Below, in pieces: positions 7,464 through 64,000 of a DNA stretch of 64,000 nt. The translations under genes and the position numbers were made by a program. The first letter of the stretch is position 1. Every line of letters starts with the position of its first letter. The notes below the pieces were generated by a model. That model saw nothing but the letters and a program-made list of their open reading frames with translations, did not search any database and was not told where the DNA came from. Origin of the DNA: a virus; IMG/VR virus record IMGVR_UViG_3300042923_000524, positions 32,001 through 96,000 of that record; one strand, given 5' to 3'.

Positions 7464-8153
7464 ATGTTATTTATGTTTAAGAAAATGTTTAATAAGCAAA
7501 CTTTAATAGCTTTTGTATTAGGAGGATTGATGTTCTCATCCATTCCTGTTTTTGCTGAAACTATTCAATATGTTTTTACACAAAGCAATTGCAAGTTAAT
7601 TATTGATGGCAAAGAATACAGTAATCCTGATATTCCTGTTACTTTGTATTTAAAAGACCAAAGTAACTATGCTCCTTTGGCTGTTATCAGAGATATATGT
7701 TTAAAACTTAATATTCCATTTGAGTATGATAATACAACAAAGGAAATTAATATTACTACTACAAGAAAGGAGGAAATTGTATTGAGTGAAACTGTTACAT
7801 CGATTGAAACAACAACAACAACTGAAACAATTACCACTGAACCAACAAATAATCTTATTACTTATGAAGAAGACGGATTGACAATTGTTGAGTTGGATAA
7901 TGTAAAATATATTAGATTAAATAGCTTAGATGAAAAACTTAGGAGTATAAACTATAAAATTTGGAACAAAACAATTACAACAACTTATTTACGTTATGGC
8001 AATGATGATGAAAATTTATCTGAACCAATTAATTTATATGGAAGAGGACTTGTTGGATTAACAGGATATAAAAAATTTAATGATAGTTTTGTCTATATGA
8101 AATATAATGATTACTTGAATAAAATAAAACCACTTATAAAAACAGGAGAATAA
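7464..8153 (+). CDS. Secreted protein with a copper-amine-oxidase-N/stalk-like domain (moron)
   Basis: Signal peptide ..FVLGGLMFSSIPVFA; KLIIDGKE..YAPL..I..L.I.FEYD..TKEINI; opposite strand to the tail operon. Confidence 0.65.
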   Translation: MLFMFKKMFNKQTLIAFVLGGLMFSSIPVFAETIQYVFTQSNCKLIIDGKEYSNPDIPVTLYLKDQSNYAPLAVIRDICLKLNIPFEYDNTTKEINITTTRKEEIVLSETVTSIETTTTTETITTEPTNNLITYEEDGLTIVELDNVKYIRLNSLDEKLRSINYKIWNKTITTTYLRYGNDDENLSEPINLYGRGLVGLTGYKKFNDSFVYMKYNDYLNKIKPLIKTGE

Positions 8154-8169: not shown

Positions 8170-10710
8170 TTATGGTATCAATACATCTGTTATTAATCCA
8201 TTGCTAACAGTAATTATAGTTCCAGTAGTAATTTCATATATTCCATCAGCAGTATCTTTAATAGTTGCTCCACTAAAATCAACTAAACCATCAAAAAGTA
8301 CAGCACCATTCGTATACCCATATTCACCACTGTTTACAAGATGAATGGCATTAGTTGAACCATTGCTTGCGAAGTGTACAAAAGAAAAAGATACTCCAGA
8401 TTTATATATTGCCCCTACATTCATTGCGCTCCCATCTCCAGCACCAAAGATACAATAAGGCACTGTAAACCCACCCAATTCTTCAAATCCAAAACTCATC
8501 TTTTCAAGTCCATCATTCCAAAATTTTATATTTTGTTCTTCTAGTACTATATAGTCATTTACAATTGAACTGGTTCTAAGTTTCTTGGCAATAAGGTTTC
8601 CACCACTATCCAGAACTATCCTATCCTCCCAGACCTGTGCTTCTTGAGTTCCAGTATTAGCTCTAATATAGAAACCTAACTCTGGTGACATATCTATTTT
8701 GTATCTTTCAACAGCATCTATTATAGTAGTCATTTTTATAAATCCATTATCAATGTAGAGACAAGGTTTATTTAAACTGTCCAATCCGAGATATATTGCA
8801 TTTCTAAAATTATTTAATTCTTCATTAAAAATATCAATTTGAATACCATTTCCTCTTGTAATTGCTACACGACTTGTTTTGTCAGAGGTTTCCATATAAA
8901 GACCATTAGCCGAAAGCAAAGTATAATATGTCTCCCAACTGTCTTCACTAAAAATAATTTTGTCATTTTTTAGTTGAATTGAACCAGTTCCACTGATATC
9001 CGAACCAATAAAACCACGTTGAGAAATGTAGTTACTTCCTGCTTTTATGGTATTTTCAATAATTGAATCAGTATAAACAACTCTATCTCTATCATCAACA
9101 TATTTACTATAATCATATTTTTTAACTTCAATTTGATTAGCTACATCAGTAGTTAATTTAAAGATATTCTTGCCTAATAATGCCAAATCATTTTCTAATT
9201 TATCAGTGTTGCTAAAACTCATACTTAAACTATTACTTATAGGGTTATGTGAATAAGCAACTAATCTAATAGGATAATAATTAAAACCTAATTCAGGACT
9301 ATCAATACTTATAAAACTTCCTATATTGATATTTGCCCTATTTACTTCGCCTTCTTTGCAACTAAAAATATCTATACTATCTAAATCGAATGTTATAGGA
9401 GTTTGAGAAACTTTTATAATATATTGTTTGGCATATTCATATAACTGTTTTGCATCACTAACTTGGTCAAAAGAAATACTTTGCTCCTTAACAAAATCTA
9501 TCAACTCTTCAAGCTGAGCCTGAGTAAAGTTATTTTCATAACTTAAAGTATTTCTTAGAATCAATATATTAGCATTTACAGTATTTATGTTTGCTTGAAT
9601 TGCACTTATCTCATCTTCTTTGTTTTCTATTTCAATCTCTTTATCCTGCAAATCATCAAATATTGAATCGTATGCGGAAGTGTTTGAGGAATATGTATTC
9701 TTCTCTAAATCGAGTGCATCTTCAATTTGTGCTTTTTCACTATTCAACGCCACTAATTCATTTTGTTTTAATAGTTTATTTGTTTCATAACTATCAAGTT
9801 GATTTATATATGATGTAAAATCTCCATCTTTTGTTGCTAATAGTGTTTTATAATTATTCCATGCACTTTTTAAACTGCCTGAGAAATAGTCATTATCAAT
9901 AAACCAATCAAAATTTTCTACATAATCTCTACCAGTAATATTGTATTTATATATACCAACATTATCTTTACCTGTGATAGTAAGTCTAGTTATCAATTGG
10001 TCAAATTTATTTTCATTAGAAATTGATTTTATAAAATTTGTATCTGAAAGAACTAAATTGGTTTGTTCCCCTAATTCAGATTTTTCATATATATTAATTT
10101 CTTTGTTAATGCTATCGAAAACTATGAAGCAATTATATTCTTTCTCTAATGATTTAAACACGTCAGTATATGAGGAATCTGAAAAATCAAAACTGTGATA
10201 GATGTTTAGATTAGGATTGATATATCCTATACTCCAAGAATCATATAAGTAATTAGTTAAGAGTAAATTTAAAATTCCACCCTTTGTATTATCATTGAAA
10301 TCATATGGGTTTACAAAATCATATAATTTTCTAGTGTCTTTATATCCTCTTAATCTCTTGTTGTTGAATATATATTCTGCATAAGCAATACAATCAATAG
10401 ACTTTTTAATTGTATTATTACTACTTTTGGTAGGTTGATTAATTACAAAGTATTCGCTATATATTATTGTGTCATCTTCTTTTATATTCATCAATACAAG
10501 AAGCAATCCTTTTGTTAAATCAAAGTTTTCATCTTTGATTCTAGTCCAACCATTCTGATAATATGATAATTCAAAATTTAATTCGTTAAAACTATCAAAT
10601 CTAGGACTGAATGTTAAATCTGTGTATTCTAATGTACCTATTTCATTTCTGAGTGAACCGCATAATATAAGTTCATAAAAATATTTTTTATTTAATAGCT
10701 GACCTATCAA
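8170..10710 (-). CDS. Tail-associated (Tal / prophage endopeptidase-tail-like) baseplate protein
   Basis: Follows Dit; prophage tail motifs (L.TRL.I.GKD..I..NITG.DY.E.F.WF); central coiled coil. Confidence 0.7.
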   Translation of the reverse strand: MIGQLLNKKYFYELILCGSLRNEIGTLEYTDLTFSPRFDSFNELNFELSYYQNGWTRIKDENFDLTKGLLLVLMNIKEDDTIIYSEYFVINQPTKSSNNTIKKSIDCIAYAEYIFNNKRLRGYKDTRKLYDFVNPYDFNDNTKGGILNLLLTNYLYDSWSIGYINPNLNIYHSFDFSDSSYTDVFKSLEKEYNCFIVFDSINKEINIYEKSELGEQTNLVLSDTNFIKSISNENKFDQLITRLTITGKDNVGIYKYNITGRDYVENFDWFIDNDYFSGSLKSAWNNYKTLLATKDGDFTSYINQLDSYETNKLLKQNELVALNSEKAQIEDALDLEKNTYSSNTSAYDSIFDDLQDKEIEIENKEDEISAIQANINTVNANILILRNTLSYENNFTQAQLEELIDFVKEQSISFDQVSDAKQLYEYAKQYIIKVSQTPITFDLDSIDIFSCKEGEVNRANINIGSFISIDSPELGFNYYPIRLVAYSHNPISNSLSMSFSNTDKLENDLALLGKNIFKLTTDVANQIEVKKYDYSKYVDDRDRVVYTDSIIENTIKAGSNYISQRGFIGSDISGTGSIQLKNDKIIFSEDSWETYYTLLSANGLYMETSDKTSRVAITRGNGIQIDIFNEELNNFRNAIYLGLDSLNKPCLYIDNGFIKMTTIIDAVERYKIDMSPELGFYIRANTGTQEAQVWEDRIVLDSGGNLIAKKLRTSSIVNDYIVLEEQNIKFWNDGLEKMSFGFEELGGFTVPYCIFGAGDGSAMNVGAIYKSGVSFSFVHFASNGSTNAIHLVNSGEYGYTNGAVLFDGLVDFSGATIKDTADGIYEITTGTIITVSNGLITDVLIP

Positions 10711-10723
10711 TAGATATCACCTC

Positions 10724-11518
10724 CTAGATATATAGTGGGAATTCTGATTTTATTTGTATGACACAAGGGTTATCTACTGTAATTAAATTTTGACCATATG
10801 TTAGTCTAAGCCAATTTTTATTAAAGTTTCCTAATCTATTCAAACCAGAACTTGAAACTATTTGTTTTAATTGATTATTAAAATAGAACTCTTCTAATGT
10901 GTTTTCTACTTGAATTTGAAATACTCTATTAGCATCAGAAGTATTCGTTAATGTTACCCCTGTACTATCACCTTTTAAGTCAATCCAAAGTTCTGGTTCA
11001 TAATAATAATCTTGATATTTTGGATGCATTACATTTGATTTATTTACAAGCATTATTGTAGTTGGTTCAGTTATATCCGATAGGTCGAAAGTAGATATTT
11101 CTGGAATACTAAAACTATAAGGTGCTGATGTTCTAAGTTGTAATTCAAAATATCCACGATTTCCAGTTAAATATAAATCTGATTGATTAGTACAAATAAC
11201 ATAAAAAATACGTCCTAAAAAATCTGTGCTTTGGAAACTTTTATAAGTATCTCCTCCAAATAATTTAGCAATTTGAAATCTATATTCCTCTGTAAATTCA
11301 TCATCAAGCAAACTAAATTTTAATGTAAATTCAATAGGCTTTTTTATTGTTTTATAAAAAGTTGGTATGTCTCTGTATGGCACTTGTTCTTCTACAATAT
11401 CTCTCGCACCTATAAAGGGAGTATTTACAAGTCCACTATCTGTACGAATTATCGAAATACCATTAACGCCTATATCTGAACTATTTACTCCATCTATAAT
11501 AAAAGTTGTATCTTGCAT
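10724..11518 (-). CDS. Distal tail protein (Dit)
   Basis: Directly after the tape measure; F.IDG.NS.D.G start; W.RL..G.N.I end. Confidence 0.7.
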   Translation of the reverse strand: MQDTTFIIDGVNSSDIGVNGISIIRTDSGLVNTPFIGARDIVEEQVPYRDIPTFYKTIKKPIEFTLKFSLLDDEFTEEYRFQIAKLFGGDTYKSFQSTDFLGRIFYVICTNQSDLYLTGNRGYFELQLRTSAPYSFSIPEISTFDLSDITEPTTIMLVNKSNVMHPKYQDYYYEPELWIDLKGDSTGVTLTNTSDANRVFQIQVENTLEEFYFNNQLKQIVSSSGLNRLGNFNKNWLRLTYGQNLITVDNPCVIQIKSEFPLYI

Positions 11519-59315: not shown

Positions 59316-59438
59316 ATATGATTATAAAATAGGCTGAATAAAGCCTATTTTTTTTATGTATTGACTTCCTATAAACTCATGTTACAATTAAAGAGAATAC
59401 ATAACACATATAAAATTAATAAAGGAGGAAACGAATTA

Positions 59439-60314
59439 TTGAATGTATTATCATTATTTGATGGAGGCTCATGCGGTCAAGTAGCATTACAGAGGGCAAA
59501 TATAAAAGTAGAAAAATATTATGCTAGTGAAATAAATCCAAATAGCGTAAAAGTAACACAAAAGAATTACCCTAATACAATACAGCTTGGAGATGTAACA
59601 CAACTAAACAAAGAAAAATTATTAAATTTAGGTAAAATTGATTTATTAATTGGTGGTAGTCCCTGCGAAGATTTAACAATAACCGCAATTGATAGAAAAG
59701 ATATTAACAAAGGTTTAGAAGGTAAAAAGTCAAAGTTGTTTTATAATTATGTGGATGCTCTTAATATTATTAAACCTAAATACTTTTTACTTGAAAATGT
59801 TGCAAGTATGACAAAAGAAAATATAGATATAATATCTAGTGAATTAGGAGTAAAACCAATATTAATAAATAGTAATTTAGTATCGGCTCAGGATAGGGAA
59901 AGACTTTACTGGACTAATATTACAGGTATTGCACAGCCAAAAAATAAAGAAATTTTATTAAAACACGTCTTGCAGCGAGATGTAGAAGAAAAATTTTACT
60001 ACAATAAACCCTTTGAATTTTATGGATTAGATAAAAAAGTATGTGCGAAATTGTTAGTAAATTCTCATGATTTAGTTAAAAGAGTTTATAATCCAGATTT
60101 TAAATGTGCAACATTAACAGCTGTACAAGGTGGATATCAAGAGAAAAAAGTTTATATAAATAGTAGAGTTAGAAAATTAACACCAATAGAATATGAAAGA
60201 CTTCAGACTTTACCAGATAATTATACATATGGAGTTAGCAATACAGCACGCTATAGTATTTGTGGAGATGGTTGGACAGTTGATATAATAGCACATATTT
60301 TTAAAAATATATAA
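59439..60314 (+). CDS. dcm: C5-cytosine DNA methyltransferase
   Basis: LSLFDG, GGSPC, LENV, Q.R.RLYW, R.LTP.EYERLQ, GDGWT. Track start TTG 59361 is the -35 box of its promoter; real start is TTG 59439. Confidence 0.9.
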   Translation: MNVLSLFDGGSCGQVALQRANIKVEKYYASEINPNSVKVTQKNYPNTIQLGDVTQLNKEKLLNLGKIDLLIGGSPCEDLTITAIDRKDINKGLEGKKSKLFYNYVDALNIIKPKYFLLENVASMTKENIDIISSELGVKPILINSNLVSAQDRERLYWTNITGIAQPKNKEILLKHVLQRDVEEKFYYNKPFEFYGLDKKVCAKLLVNSHDLVKRVYNPDFKCATLTAVQGGYQEKKVYINSRVRKLTPIEYERLQTLPDNYTYGVSNTARYSICGDGWTVDIIAHIFKNI

Positions 60315-60806: not shown

Positions 60807-60999
60807 TAAATAGAGGATATAAGAAAAGAATTTAGCAGTTTATTAATTGCAGCCGAAAGGCTGTTTTTAATTTCACGACAAAACACTTCTTTCATGGTCA
60901 TTACTGGAGCAGATTATTTTTAAAAATCATGTATCAACTTTAAACTAAAAGCATATAATAAATTAACCAAATACAAATATAAAACTTTTAAAATATTTG

Positions 61000-61029
61000 T
61001 TGACAGAAATTTCTAGCATATGTTATAAT
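61000..61029 (+). promoter_or_regulatory. SigmaA extended -10 early promoter
   Basis: TTGACA-18-TATAAT with TG. Confidence 0.75.
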
Positions 61030-61296: not shown

Positions 61297-61366
61297 TCTC
61301 GACTATGCGAGTATAAACAGACTTTAAGCATAGAGCGTTAACAGGTTTAACAGCCTGTTAGGTAGT
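61297..61366 (+). ncRNA. Pistol-class self-cleaving ribozyme (copy 1)
   Basis: P1 CUCG/CGAG with loop ACUAUG; AUAAACAG; P2 ACU/AGU; UUAAG; pseudoknot CAUAG pairs with CUAUG; AGCG; P3 UUAACAGG/CCUGUUAG; G|U site at 61362/61363. Confidence 0.85.
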
Positions 61367-61399
61367 AATAAATAATAAATTAATAGGAGTGATTTATCA

Positions 61400-62090: not shown

Positions 62091-62213
62091 TATTAAGAGA
62101 AGCCTGTAAAAAGGCTTTTTCTTTTATCTAATATCCAGACCAAATAGATGTTTTATTGTCATATAATGTCGATAAGTTTTATAATAATTAATATAAAATT
62201 GAGCAAAATAATG

Positions 62214-62243
62214 TTGACAGATTAAAAACACGTATGTTATAAT
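62214..62243 (+). promoter_or_regulatory. SigmaA extended -10 early promoter
   Basis: TTGACA-18-TATAAT with TG. Confidence 0.75.
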
Positions 62244-62310: not shown

Positions 62311-62991
62311 GTGGAAATTATGAAAAAAACATTATATTTTGAAGGTGCAGGATGGTCGGGAGCAGATATAAGCCAAAGAACAATAGGAAATTGCAGAATA
62401 AGAACAGGATTCACAAACAACGAAGGAAGAAAAATCTATTTAGAAATTACTGGTTATGAAAAATCAGCCAATGATAAAAAGATTGACAGATATTCAGAAT
62501 ATCAAGTTGGAGAAGCAATTGGATTTGTAGATTATTGTTTTTATATTGATACAGAATCAAAAGACCCTTGCAACGAATGCAGAATAAAAGACATAGAACA
62601 TAATGCAAAATTTGCTTATACAAAAGAAGGTATAACAGAGTTTATTAATAAAAATCTGAAGTGCAGCTTTGAAACTATCGAAGTATTGCCAGATTTAGGA
62701 GGTTACAGAGTACACGGAGATAACAAAACATATAGCATGATGGAAGACTACAATCATAATTCAGAACTAATTAAGACAAGAGAAGAAGTTTACAATCATT
62801 TTTACGGACTTGAAAAATCAGAAGGTAAACAATATCCAAACTTCTCTTTATGGGTAGATGATAAAGACATTCACTTATTACACTTGTTAAGACATTTTAA
62901 TGGTTATAATAAGCATTGGTCAATTCATACCGATATAGAAAACTGGAAAGAAACAATAACAGAAACCAAGTTGGGAAAATATGCCTGTTAG
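62311..62991 (+). CDS. Hypothetical early protein
   Basis: ORF track. Confidence 0.65.
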   Translation: MEIMKKTLYFEGAGWSGADISQRTIGNCRIRTGFTNNEGRKIYLEITGYEKSANDKKIDRYSEYQVGEAIGFVDYCFYIDTESKDPCNECRIKDIEHNAKFAYTKEGITEFINKNLKCSFETIEVLPDLGGYRVHGDNKTYSMMEDYNHNSELIKTREEVYNHFYGLEKSEGKQYPNFSLWVDDKDIHLLHLLRHFNGYNKHWSIHTDIENWKETITETKLGKYAC

Positions 62992-63096: not shown

Positions 63097-63498
63097 ATGA
63101 TAAAAACATTTAAGAAAGAATTAAATAGCCACGATTACAATGAAATAAGAATAATTAATTTAGAATCTGGAGAATTTACACACTATTTTCAGGATAAAAA
63201 TATAGGCTTTATATTTTCAGATTATACAACAACAGTATTTGAAATGGGCTATAAATCAGTTAAAGAATGCATTAAAGAACTAAGAAGCCGAGGTTTATTA
63301 GGTCAAGAAGTTGATTACAAAGAACAAAAAGAATCTGAAAGAATCGGTTATATTAAATTAGGCGTAGAGCGCATTAAAAGAGCAGGAAGAGTAAATACAA
63401 ATGATTTTGAAGATGTAATAACAAAGCTATCAAAATATGGTATGGGATTCTGTGATGCTCAAAATGTAATAACAGAAACATATTTATATCAAGCATAG
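63097..63498 (+). CDS. Hypothetical early protein
   Basis: ORF track. Confidence 0.6.
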   Translation: MIKTFKKELNSHDYNEIRIINLESGEFTHYFQDKNIGFIFSDYTTTVFEMGYKSVKECIKELRSRGLLGQEVDYKEQKESERIGYIKLGVERIKRAGRVNTNDFEDVITKLSKYGMGFCDAQNVITETYLYQA

Positions 63499-63500
63499 CA

Positions 63501-63572
63501 ACAGGTCACAGCCTGTATAAATAGTGCTTTAAGCTGTGAGCGTGTCAAGGTATAACAGCCTTGACGATAGCA
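63501..63572 (+). ncRNA. Pistol-class self-cleaving ribozyme (copy 2)
   Basis: P1 ACAGG/CCUGU with loop UCACAG; AUAAAUAG; P2 UGCU/AGCA; UUAAG; pseudoknot CUGUG pairs with CACAG; AGCG; P3 UGUCAAGG/CCUUGACG; A|U at the cleavage position (63567/63568). Confidence 0.85.
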
Positions 63573-63599
63573 AAATAAAGGTTTAGGAGGTCGTTAAAC

Positions 63600-63908
63600 A
63601 TGAGTTATAATAAGGCTATGAAGCATTCAAACAATCATAGAAAAGATAAATACTATCAACCAGTTTTAGGTATGCCCTTTGAAGGTTTAAAAGAAGGAGA
63701 GCATATAGAAAGCTATCAAAGTATAGCAGAAAGAACAGCAGAATCATATCATGTTAAAGCTTTTAACGAAATAAATAATACATGGGAAAGAATGTCTAAG
63801 GATTTTTTAACAGAATCAGAAGCGATTGACGAAAGTTTTATATTTGACGAAAAGGGTTATAGAACTAGAATATATAGTGATAAAGATATGAGAGTTGCAG
63901 GATGGTAA
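63600..63908 (+). CDS. Hypothetical early protein downstream of ribozyme 2
   Basis: ORF track; RBS AGGAGG. Confidence 0.6.
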   Translation: MSYNKAMKHSNNHRKDKYYQPVLGMPFEGLKEGEHIESYQSIAERTAESYHVKAFNEINNTWERMSKDFLTESEAIDESFIFDEKGYRTRIYSDKDMRVAGW

Positions 63909-64000
63909 AAACACTATAACAGCCGAGGTATTTTAAACCATGAAGTTTTAAAAAGTTACTATAACAGTCGACACAAAATAGTTGACGAAGTTTTCTTATA

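Follow-up and report, generated by a model that had tools for sequence, protein, structure and literature searches.

In phage T7 and in the Bacillus phages SP82 and SPO1, early polycistronic transcripts are cut by RNase III downstream of one gene's stop codon and upstream of the following ribosome-binding site, and the resulting messages have structured 3' ends. Phages also use short words as signals: T4 RegB targets GGAG in early transcripts, and a stand-alone 8-bp element associated with gp55, TATAAATA, serves as the T4 late promoter. There are precedents for single-element phage promoters. The pistol self-cleaving ribozymes (RF02679; Weinberg 2015; Harris 2015, PMC4604425; env25 structure) are built from a P1 hairpin, a 6-bp pseudoknot, an AUAAA linker, the helices P2 and P3 and a 2-nt junction. 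Their self-cleavage depends on Mg2+, is site-specific and yields a 2',3'-cyclic phosphate and a 5'-OH. The class was discovered by its association with phages and its clustering with other ribozymes, and cleaves at what Harris 2015 termed a "modestly conserved GU dinucleotide", within a junction whose length is strictly conserved and whose identity varies; bimolecular constructs that lack the P3 loop are still active (PMC4604425). Roles for the pistol residues A32, G33, G40, C41 and G42 have been described (PMC6154101). The pseudoknot-containing hammerhead is reported to have essentially the pistol secondary structure and connectivity (PMC11300833).

The locus described here, nucleotides 63501-63572 of the window (the whole stretch of 64,000 nucleotides that was analysed), shares with the pistol class this entire architecture, the conserved core, a Firmicutes-phage context and a score far above the family cut-off. 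It differs from the class in having A in place of the G nucleophile, an additional nucleotide where the linker meets P2, and a phage-wide octamer in the P3 loop. Unlike the RNase III sites of T7, SP82 and SPO1, its predicted cut would be made by the RNA itself with no host enzyme, and would leave cyclic-phosphate and 5'-OH ends. This second pistol of the phage, copy 2, adds a clean covarying member to a known class, and the ribozyme itself is ordinary; it provides a natural A-U cleavage-site variant in a class whose function in nature has yet to be explained.

A second pistol ribozyme in an SPbeta-like phage

The window comprises bases 32001-96000 of a 137,947 bp IMG/VR virus record with direct terminal repeats. 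By its gene content, the phage belongs to the SPbeta-like group: it encodes a YonO-type RNA polymerase (genome 70984-73578) with 55% identity to SPbeta YonO, as well as yopQ-like and yopR-like genes, and the position of its C5 cytosine DNA methyltransferase fits the same assignment. The methyltransferase gene (window 59361-60314, + strand; Pfam DNA_methylase, E 1.4e-35) precedes pistol copy 1 by about 1 kb, a position comparable to that of SPbeta mtbP, and is the sole match when ten neighbouring ORFs are searched against Pfam and PHROGs. The G+C content is 27.8%, versus 34.6% for SPbeta, and a DNA search of a phage database with the region returned one weak match, to Psychrobacillus phage Perkons. 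For comparison, the present phage (G000) was set beside three others, G001 (139 kb), G002 (154 kb) and G003 (150 kb), and SPbeta. Very few ORFs are common to G000-G003 by blastp: a yopQ-like gene, a yopR-like gene, an HNH endonuclease and one 497-aa protein.

Copy 2 matches the Rfam Pistol model RF02679 (cmscan) over window 63501-63572 on the + strand with 59.9 bits (E 2.1e-08; gathering score 34.5 bits), covering model positions 1-68 of 68. The earlier note had placed a second pistol here, and all the features it described are present. It had also proposed a covariance-model search of the whole phage genome; over the entire 137,947-bp record the model has exactly two matches, copies 1 and 2, and among 14 control genomes it has none. 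Scanning both strands of the genome with a pistol-core pattern yielded no further copy and no permuted pistol beyond the two known ones. At the gathering threshold the rest of the genome contains, among Rfam families, only a tRNA, and a permissive Rfam scan of genome 95901-103900 found nothing relevant.

The anatomy of copy 2 can be followed from its 5' end. P1 is the hairpin ACAGG/CCUGU (63501-05/63512-16, 5/5 pairs), whose 6-nt loop UCACAG (63506-11) pairs with CUGUGA in the P2-P3 junction (63534-39) to form the pseudoknot, with 6/6 Watson-Crick pairs, three of them with both partners exchanged compared with copy 1. The linker AUAAAUAG (63517-24) keeps the AUAAA element intact, and its AUAAAUA aligns to the conserved columns of the model. 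P2 follows as UGCU/AGCA (63525-28/63569-72, 4/4 pairs), and the catalytic core, which agrees with the Rfam consensus UUAAGC...GAGCGU, spans 63532-63542. The residues of copy 2 map to the env25 numbers with the numbering presumably coinciding: A32-G33 would be 63532-33 and G40-C41-G42 would be 63540-42. The A-rich linker, the purine at 32, G33, G40, C41 and G42 are thus all in place by alignment. P3 has 8 bp (63543-50/63559-66), its first pair being U.G, and is closed by the loop UAUAACAG (63551-58), one copy of the dispersed octamer discussed below. P3 and P2 are joined on the 3' side by exactly two nucleotides, and alignment to the Rfam model places the predicted scissile bond between them (A63567/U63568). 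Every structural feature of the pistol class that can be assessed in silico is present in copy 2, and self-cleavage is predicted. A pseudoknotted hammerhead was considered and excluded by the core: copy 2 carries the pistol core AAGC...GAGCGU, scores 60 bits with the pistol model and has no CUGANGA/GAAA.

Copy 1 (window 61297-61367, + strand; Rfam 64.1 bits) has the P3 loop UUUAACAG and a scissile G-U. When the two copies are aligned over the 23 pairs of the four helices, 95.6% of the cells pair as standard, and in 10 of the 23 pairs both sides have changed with pairing kept (two in P1, three in the pseudoknot, one in P2 and four in P3), a small sample of two sequences; with the registers slid along by 1-3 columns, 22-42% of the cells pair and 0-2 double changes are seen. 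In this alignment pairing fails only in copy 1, at the outermost position of P1 (U.U) and of the pseudoknot (A.A), and in the Rfam alignment P2 of copy 1 has three standard pairs and a G.A opposition at the outer position. The claim that P1, P2, P3 and the pseudoknot all differ in sequence and still pair consequently stands for copy 2 but must be softened for copy 1, given these three mismatches. The broader claim, that within-genome covariation marks a real RNA structure, is borne out by the Rfam match together with the ten double changes against the slid controls. From covariation and the family model, there is little doubt that both copies represent maintained pistol folds.

Cleavage site and operon context

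The G-U of the scissile step is replaced by A-U in copy 2, and G-U at this step is not class-defining according to Harris 2015. Among 56 viral pistols parsed by a core-pattern scan of viral contigs, both copies of the present phage included, the junction is GU in 50, AU in 3 and other in 3. The other two AU pistols (L036 and L090) are unrelated and otherwise intact-looking. Calling the A-U step unusual was therefore overstated, as 3/56 viral pistols share it and junction identity is known to vary (PMC4604425); as far as sequence can tell, A-U is a known minor natural variant and gives no reason to doubt activity. It is conceivable that copy 2 is a decaying or catalytically weak relic, impaired by its A nucleophile and staying on as a 3' hairpin cluster or as a scaffold for the octamer. 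The minority state of the A-U step would agree with this, as would a syntenic site in G003 that has no ribozyme and the conservation of a loop word that is unneeded for catalysis. Such a relic is nevertheless very improbable. The four helices are kept by the ten compensatory double changes without any disruption in copy 2, indicating ongoing selection on the fold, the pseudoknot included; all conserved core nucleotides are present; junction identity varies within the class (PMC4604425); and AU recurs in the two unrelated pistols.

Copy 2 lies within a 101-nt non-coding gap, which no ORF overlaps on either strand. The gap extends from the TAG stop codon (63496-98) of a 133-aa ORF (63097..63498, +), 2 nt before the ribozyme, to the ATG at 63600 of a 102-aa ORF (63600..63908, +) that is preceded by the Shine-Dalgarno (SD) sequence AGGAGG at 63585-63590. 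Neither ORF has a Pfam or PHROG family, and eight of their neighbours are likewise without one. This placement between a stop codon and a ribosome-binding site is as the earlier note had it. Upstream, a sigma-A-type promoter-like site (62214..62243, +) matches the consensus at 12/12 positions (TTGACA-18-TATAAT, TG-extended) and heads the operon of copy 2, and a second such site, likewise 12/12, TTGACA-18-TATAAT and TG-extended, occurs at 61000-61029 (+). Terminator-like hairpins precede the two promoters (window 60849-60864 and 62097-62120); all of these come from pattern scans and are consensus matches only. The two 12/12 promoter-like sites with their upstream terminator-like hairpins suggest short, strongly expressed host-polymerase operons of ORFan genes. 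From this layout, copy 1 appears to follow the first gene of one operon and copy 2 the pair of ORFs 62311-62991/63097-63498 of the next, an arrangement that would fit an "early, host-polymerase-transcribed" region.

Copy 2 belongs to the pistol family, covaries with copy 1, has an intact core and sits between two genes of the same orientation, and it is probably a functional pistol whose cleavage would split a polycistronic message. Host RNA polymerase would transcribe it within such a message from the sigma-A-type promoter near 62214, and the RNA would fold into P1, the 6-bp pseudoknot, P2 and P3. The RNA would then cut its backbone at A63567/U63568 through 2'-O-transesterification. Of the two resulting messages, the upstream one with the ORFs 62311-62991 and 63097-63498 would have the compactly folded ribozyme at its 3' end, terminated by a 2',3'-cyclic phosphate; the downstream one with the ORF 63600-63908 would begin with a 5'-OH and an unstructured 32-nt leader with its own ribosome-binding site. 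The net result would be that stability and translation of the adjacent genes are uncoupled, as in other phage operons. The predicted post-cleavage leaders are unstructured in both cases, 32 nt for copy 2 (-4.9 kcal/mol, z = 0.04) and 37 nt for copy 1, and the folding predictions give no sign of a ribozyme that gates the ribosome-binding site.

The 133-aa ORF upstream of copy 2 has a homologue in G003 that is 64% identical. In that phage the syntenic gene pair is adjacent (42% and 64% identity) and is followed by a 17-nt spacer without a ribozyme, indicating that the ribozyme is an optional insert that is dispensable for these genes. It had been proposed that pistols form a repeated mRNA-punctuation system in the early region. 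What remains of this proposal is that two pistols occur in separate operons with sigma-A-like promoters, along with an atypical hammerhead-like fold (see below). In the 138 kb there are only two pistols, however, and none at the syntenic pair of G003; two copies are too few to be called a "punctuation system".

The loop word as a dispersed octamer

The octamer TATAACAG occurs 20 times on the + strand of the genome and 4 times on the - strand. All but one of the + copies (19/20) are inside genome 94631-98487, a stretch of 3.9 kb that begins at window 62631 and ends about 2.5 kb past the window end. Shuffled versions of the window give 4.87 copies per 64 kb for both strands together, a rate at which one strand of a 3.9-kb stretch would be expected to hold about 0.15. 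The first exact copy of the cluster is inside the ORF 62311-62991 (62631..62638, +). Beyond the ribozyme, one copy lies 6 nt past the stop of the ORF 63600-63908 (63915..63922, +), another at 63960..63967 (+) is followed by the hairpin GUCGAC-8 nt-GUUGAC, and more + copies follow, with starts at 63997 (a copy that straddles the window end), 64034, 64192 and beyond. None of the positions flanking TATAACAG is conserved. The copy 1 loop UUUAACAG is a one-mismatch variant of the word.

One-strand clusters of TATAACAG are also found in G001 (15+/3-), G002 (3+/19-) and G003 (10+/1-); SPbeta has 1+/2- and no cluster. L221 is a fifth phage contig with a one-strand cluster. As these phages share few ORFs detectable by blastp, the octamer is conserved far beyond the surrounding sequence. 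It is intergenic or supplies the TAA stop of the upstream gene at 45 of 63 exact sites; a crude gene call puts the coding share of the regions concerned at 56-76%. G001 and G002 have one pistol each, inside the octamer cluster; the P3 loop of the former is CUAUAACAGA, and the apical P3 of the latter is AAGG-UAUAACAAG-CCUU. All four pistols of G000, G001 and G002 consequently carry TATAACAG or a one-edit variant in the P3 loop, whereas none of the roughly 50 other viral pistols does, and the P3 loops of those other pistols hold no locally repeated words of their own. Since the loop can be deleted from active constructs (PMC4604425), conservation of its word is not catalytic. The proposal that the shared P3 loop is a docking site survives insofar as the loop is clearly non-random, but it is not specific to the ribozyme, its word being one of the octamer copies that are scattered along one strand, mostly between genes.

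A literature search for TATAACAG returned only primers, and no description of the octamer was found in the searchable literature. These observations point to a real and previously undescribed cis signal. Present alike in ribozyme loops, hairpin loops and plain spacers, the word flags the borders between genes within one operon block, and it does so in no fewer than five phages. In the ribozymes it offers a handle on why phages place ribozymes between genes, since it can be mutated without touching catalysis.

In a scan of viral contigs for tandem octamers, most clusters were coding repeats of tail-fibre-like proteins, and one more true case was found, L221. The one-strand TATAACAG clusters of four unrelated contigs (L187, L223, L241 and L260) are likewise coding, and stem from repeated Asn-Ile-Thr-Ala/Gly-Ser-type units of large tail-fibre-like genes. 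Coding clusters of this kind call for caution in octamer scans by word count alone.

Several hairpins outside the pistols also present the word. G003 contains two paralogous intergenic elements (L123:2990-3085 and L123:6666-6750), each with a 7-10-bp hairpin that has the octamer in its loop; their stem sequences differ, their flanks UUUAUUGGUCAU ... GUCGAAUYAAUUUAAAGGAG are conserved, and the 3' flank includes a Spo0A-box-like TGTCGAA. More hairpins of the stem-plus-octamer-loop type occur on the same contig at 7513, 8304, 8764, 10064 and 11546. The octamer-loop elements of L123 have no match in Rfam at E <= 1.

In the present phage, a hammerhead-like three-way junction lies in the gap between two small ORFs at L005:856-917 (genome 96756-96817, + strand), about 760 nt past the window end. 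It consists of stem I CCUGU/ACAGG, the core CUGAUGA, stem II GCUUG/CAAGC followed by GAA, and stem III UCCUGC/GCAGGA, whose loop UAUAACAGA holds the octamer. The three-way junction is the minimum-energy fold (z = -2.1). A hammerhead core comprises CUGANGA, GAAA and the pair A15.1-U16.1; this fold has CUGAUGA and GAA, with U-A at 15.1/16.1. The element has no Rfam hammerhead match at E <= 5 and none to the type I model at E <= 10, and no copy of it was found in the relatives.

Possible readers of the octamer

By analogy with T4 RegB and RegA, the octamer is tentatively viewed as a single-stranded RNA signal recognised by a trans-acting factor, which would be an RNA-binding protein or an endoribonuclease with sequence specificity. 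This could well be the role of the octamer, although the chance falls somewhat short of even. Like the RegB/RegA signals or the T4 late promoter, it is a short strand-specific word in the intergenic regions of one gene block; it differs from the RegB, RegA and gp55 sites in its sequence and in also sitting in ribozyme and hairpin loops. The orientation of TATAACAG is strictly that of the coding strand. In G000 and L221 it directly abuts the SD sequence as TATAACAG-AAAGGAG (also at L221 445), and at genome 98284, at L086 1441 and 9892 and at L221 460 it lies between the SD sequence and the ATG. At such sites a -10-type promoter could not serve the gene in question, which counts for reading at the RNA level. 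Tandem copies are spaced 8-19 nt apart without helical phasing. The octamer falls within strong hairpin loops at 30% of sites versus 17% of controls (p = 0.026), its hosts being pistol P3, stem III of the hammerhead-like fold and the G003 intergenic hairpins of 6-10 bp (one up to 18 bp). Against reading in RNA, most octamer sites are outside hairpins. Display in hairpin loops was rejected as a general rule, as the enrichment is modest and accessibility by RNAplfold is marginal (median 0.11 versus 0.09 for composition-matched octamers, p = 0.052).

The word might instead be a single-element, -10-like promoter comparable to T4 late TATAAATA or phiEco32 gp36 TAATGTATA, read by a modified host polymerase or a phage factor. 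The octamer of a pistol would then start transcripts about 5 nt upstream of the cut, and the initiated and processed 5' ends would be nearly equal. An 8-bp word without flanking conservation, co-oriented with the genes and mostly intergenic, is what such a promoter would look like, and from the end of the word to the scissile bond there are 9 nt in both pistols of this phage, and about 8 nt to the predicted bond in the hammerhead-like fold. At most sites the distance from the end of the word to the following start codon is 20-70 nt, as promoters would give as well. At least eight sites, however, abut the SD sequence or sit between it and the ATG, so that a transcript starting 5-7 nt downstream would lack the SD sequence, and the close tandem copies fit a promoter no better. 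The C at -7 is incompatible with recognition by sigma-A, and a domain search of G000-G003 found neither Sigma70_r2 nor r4_2. YonO could be the reader in only two of the phages, as its homologues (53-55% identity) are present in G000 and G001 and not in G002 and G003, and the yonN-yonK stretch of SPbeta, where the published YonO start would be expected, is without the octamer; a YonO promoter was rejected on these grounds. Overall, a promoter is unlikely. Placement of the octamer at a sigma-A transcription start was rejected as a general feature, with a -10-like box 1-5 nt upstream in 30% of sites versus 25% of controls and a full promoter context in 6/114 sites versus 2.1% of controls. Nor was a fixed spacing to a downstream -10 box, as for the MotA box, seen by eye.

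Yet more doubtful is a double-stranded DNA operator, bound by a phage regulator that would repress or activate the accessory-gene operons; occurrence of the word in ribozyme loops would then just reflect where non-essential sequence is to be had. The word begins 3 nt past a -10 box at genome 96192, a classic operator position, with a second case at G2 84299 (reverse-complement coordinates), and ribozyme loops and intergenic DNA could be the only places free for a site. The scarcity of promoter-like context (the 6/114 sites given above) speaks against an operator, as do the unphased tandem spacings and the asymmetry of the word, which is no palindrome and keeps to the coding strand throughout. 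There is a similarly small chance that the octamer is read in some way other than by an RNA factor, a promoter or a DNA regulator.

Within the preferred reading as an RNA signal, a more specific version can be envisaged, which is possible but distinctly less assured. The octamer would be the word of a trans-acting RNA factor, for example of the MazF type, that cuts or binds transcripts of the accessory block at almost every gene boundary, and the ribozyme and hairpin loops would display the same word, giving a two-layer processing system. Comparative genomics of the four phages brought forward no candidate for a shared reader protein. Genes for MazF/PemK-type endoribonucleases are present at genome 106968-107636 (+), in G001 at 10274-11158, and in G003 at 114327-114758 and 118272-119060, that is, in 3/4 of the phage records searched, and were not found in G002 or SPbeta. 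A phage MazF/PemK as reader of the octamer is a possible lead rather than evidence, and its occurrence may be a coincidence.

The intergenic region that follows the ORF downstream of copy 2 is unusually long, at about 330 nt (window 63909-64000 continuing into L005:1-335; genome 95909-96235). It contains four octamer copies spaced 45, 37 and 37 nt apart and the mutually complementary segments CCAUGAAG/CUUCAUGG, and its fifth octamer, at genome 96192, starts 3 nt past the -10 box of an 11/12 sigma-A-like promoter (TTGACA-18-TAAAAT). This region could be a regulatory hub or encode a small RNA.
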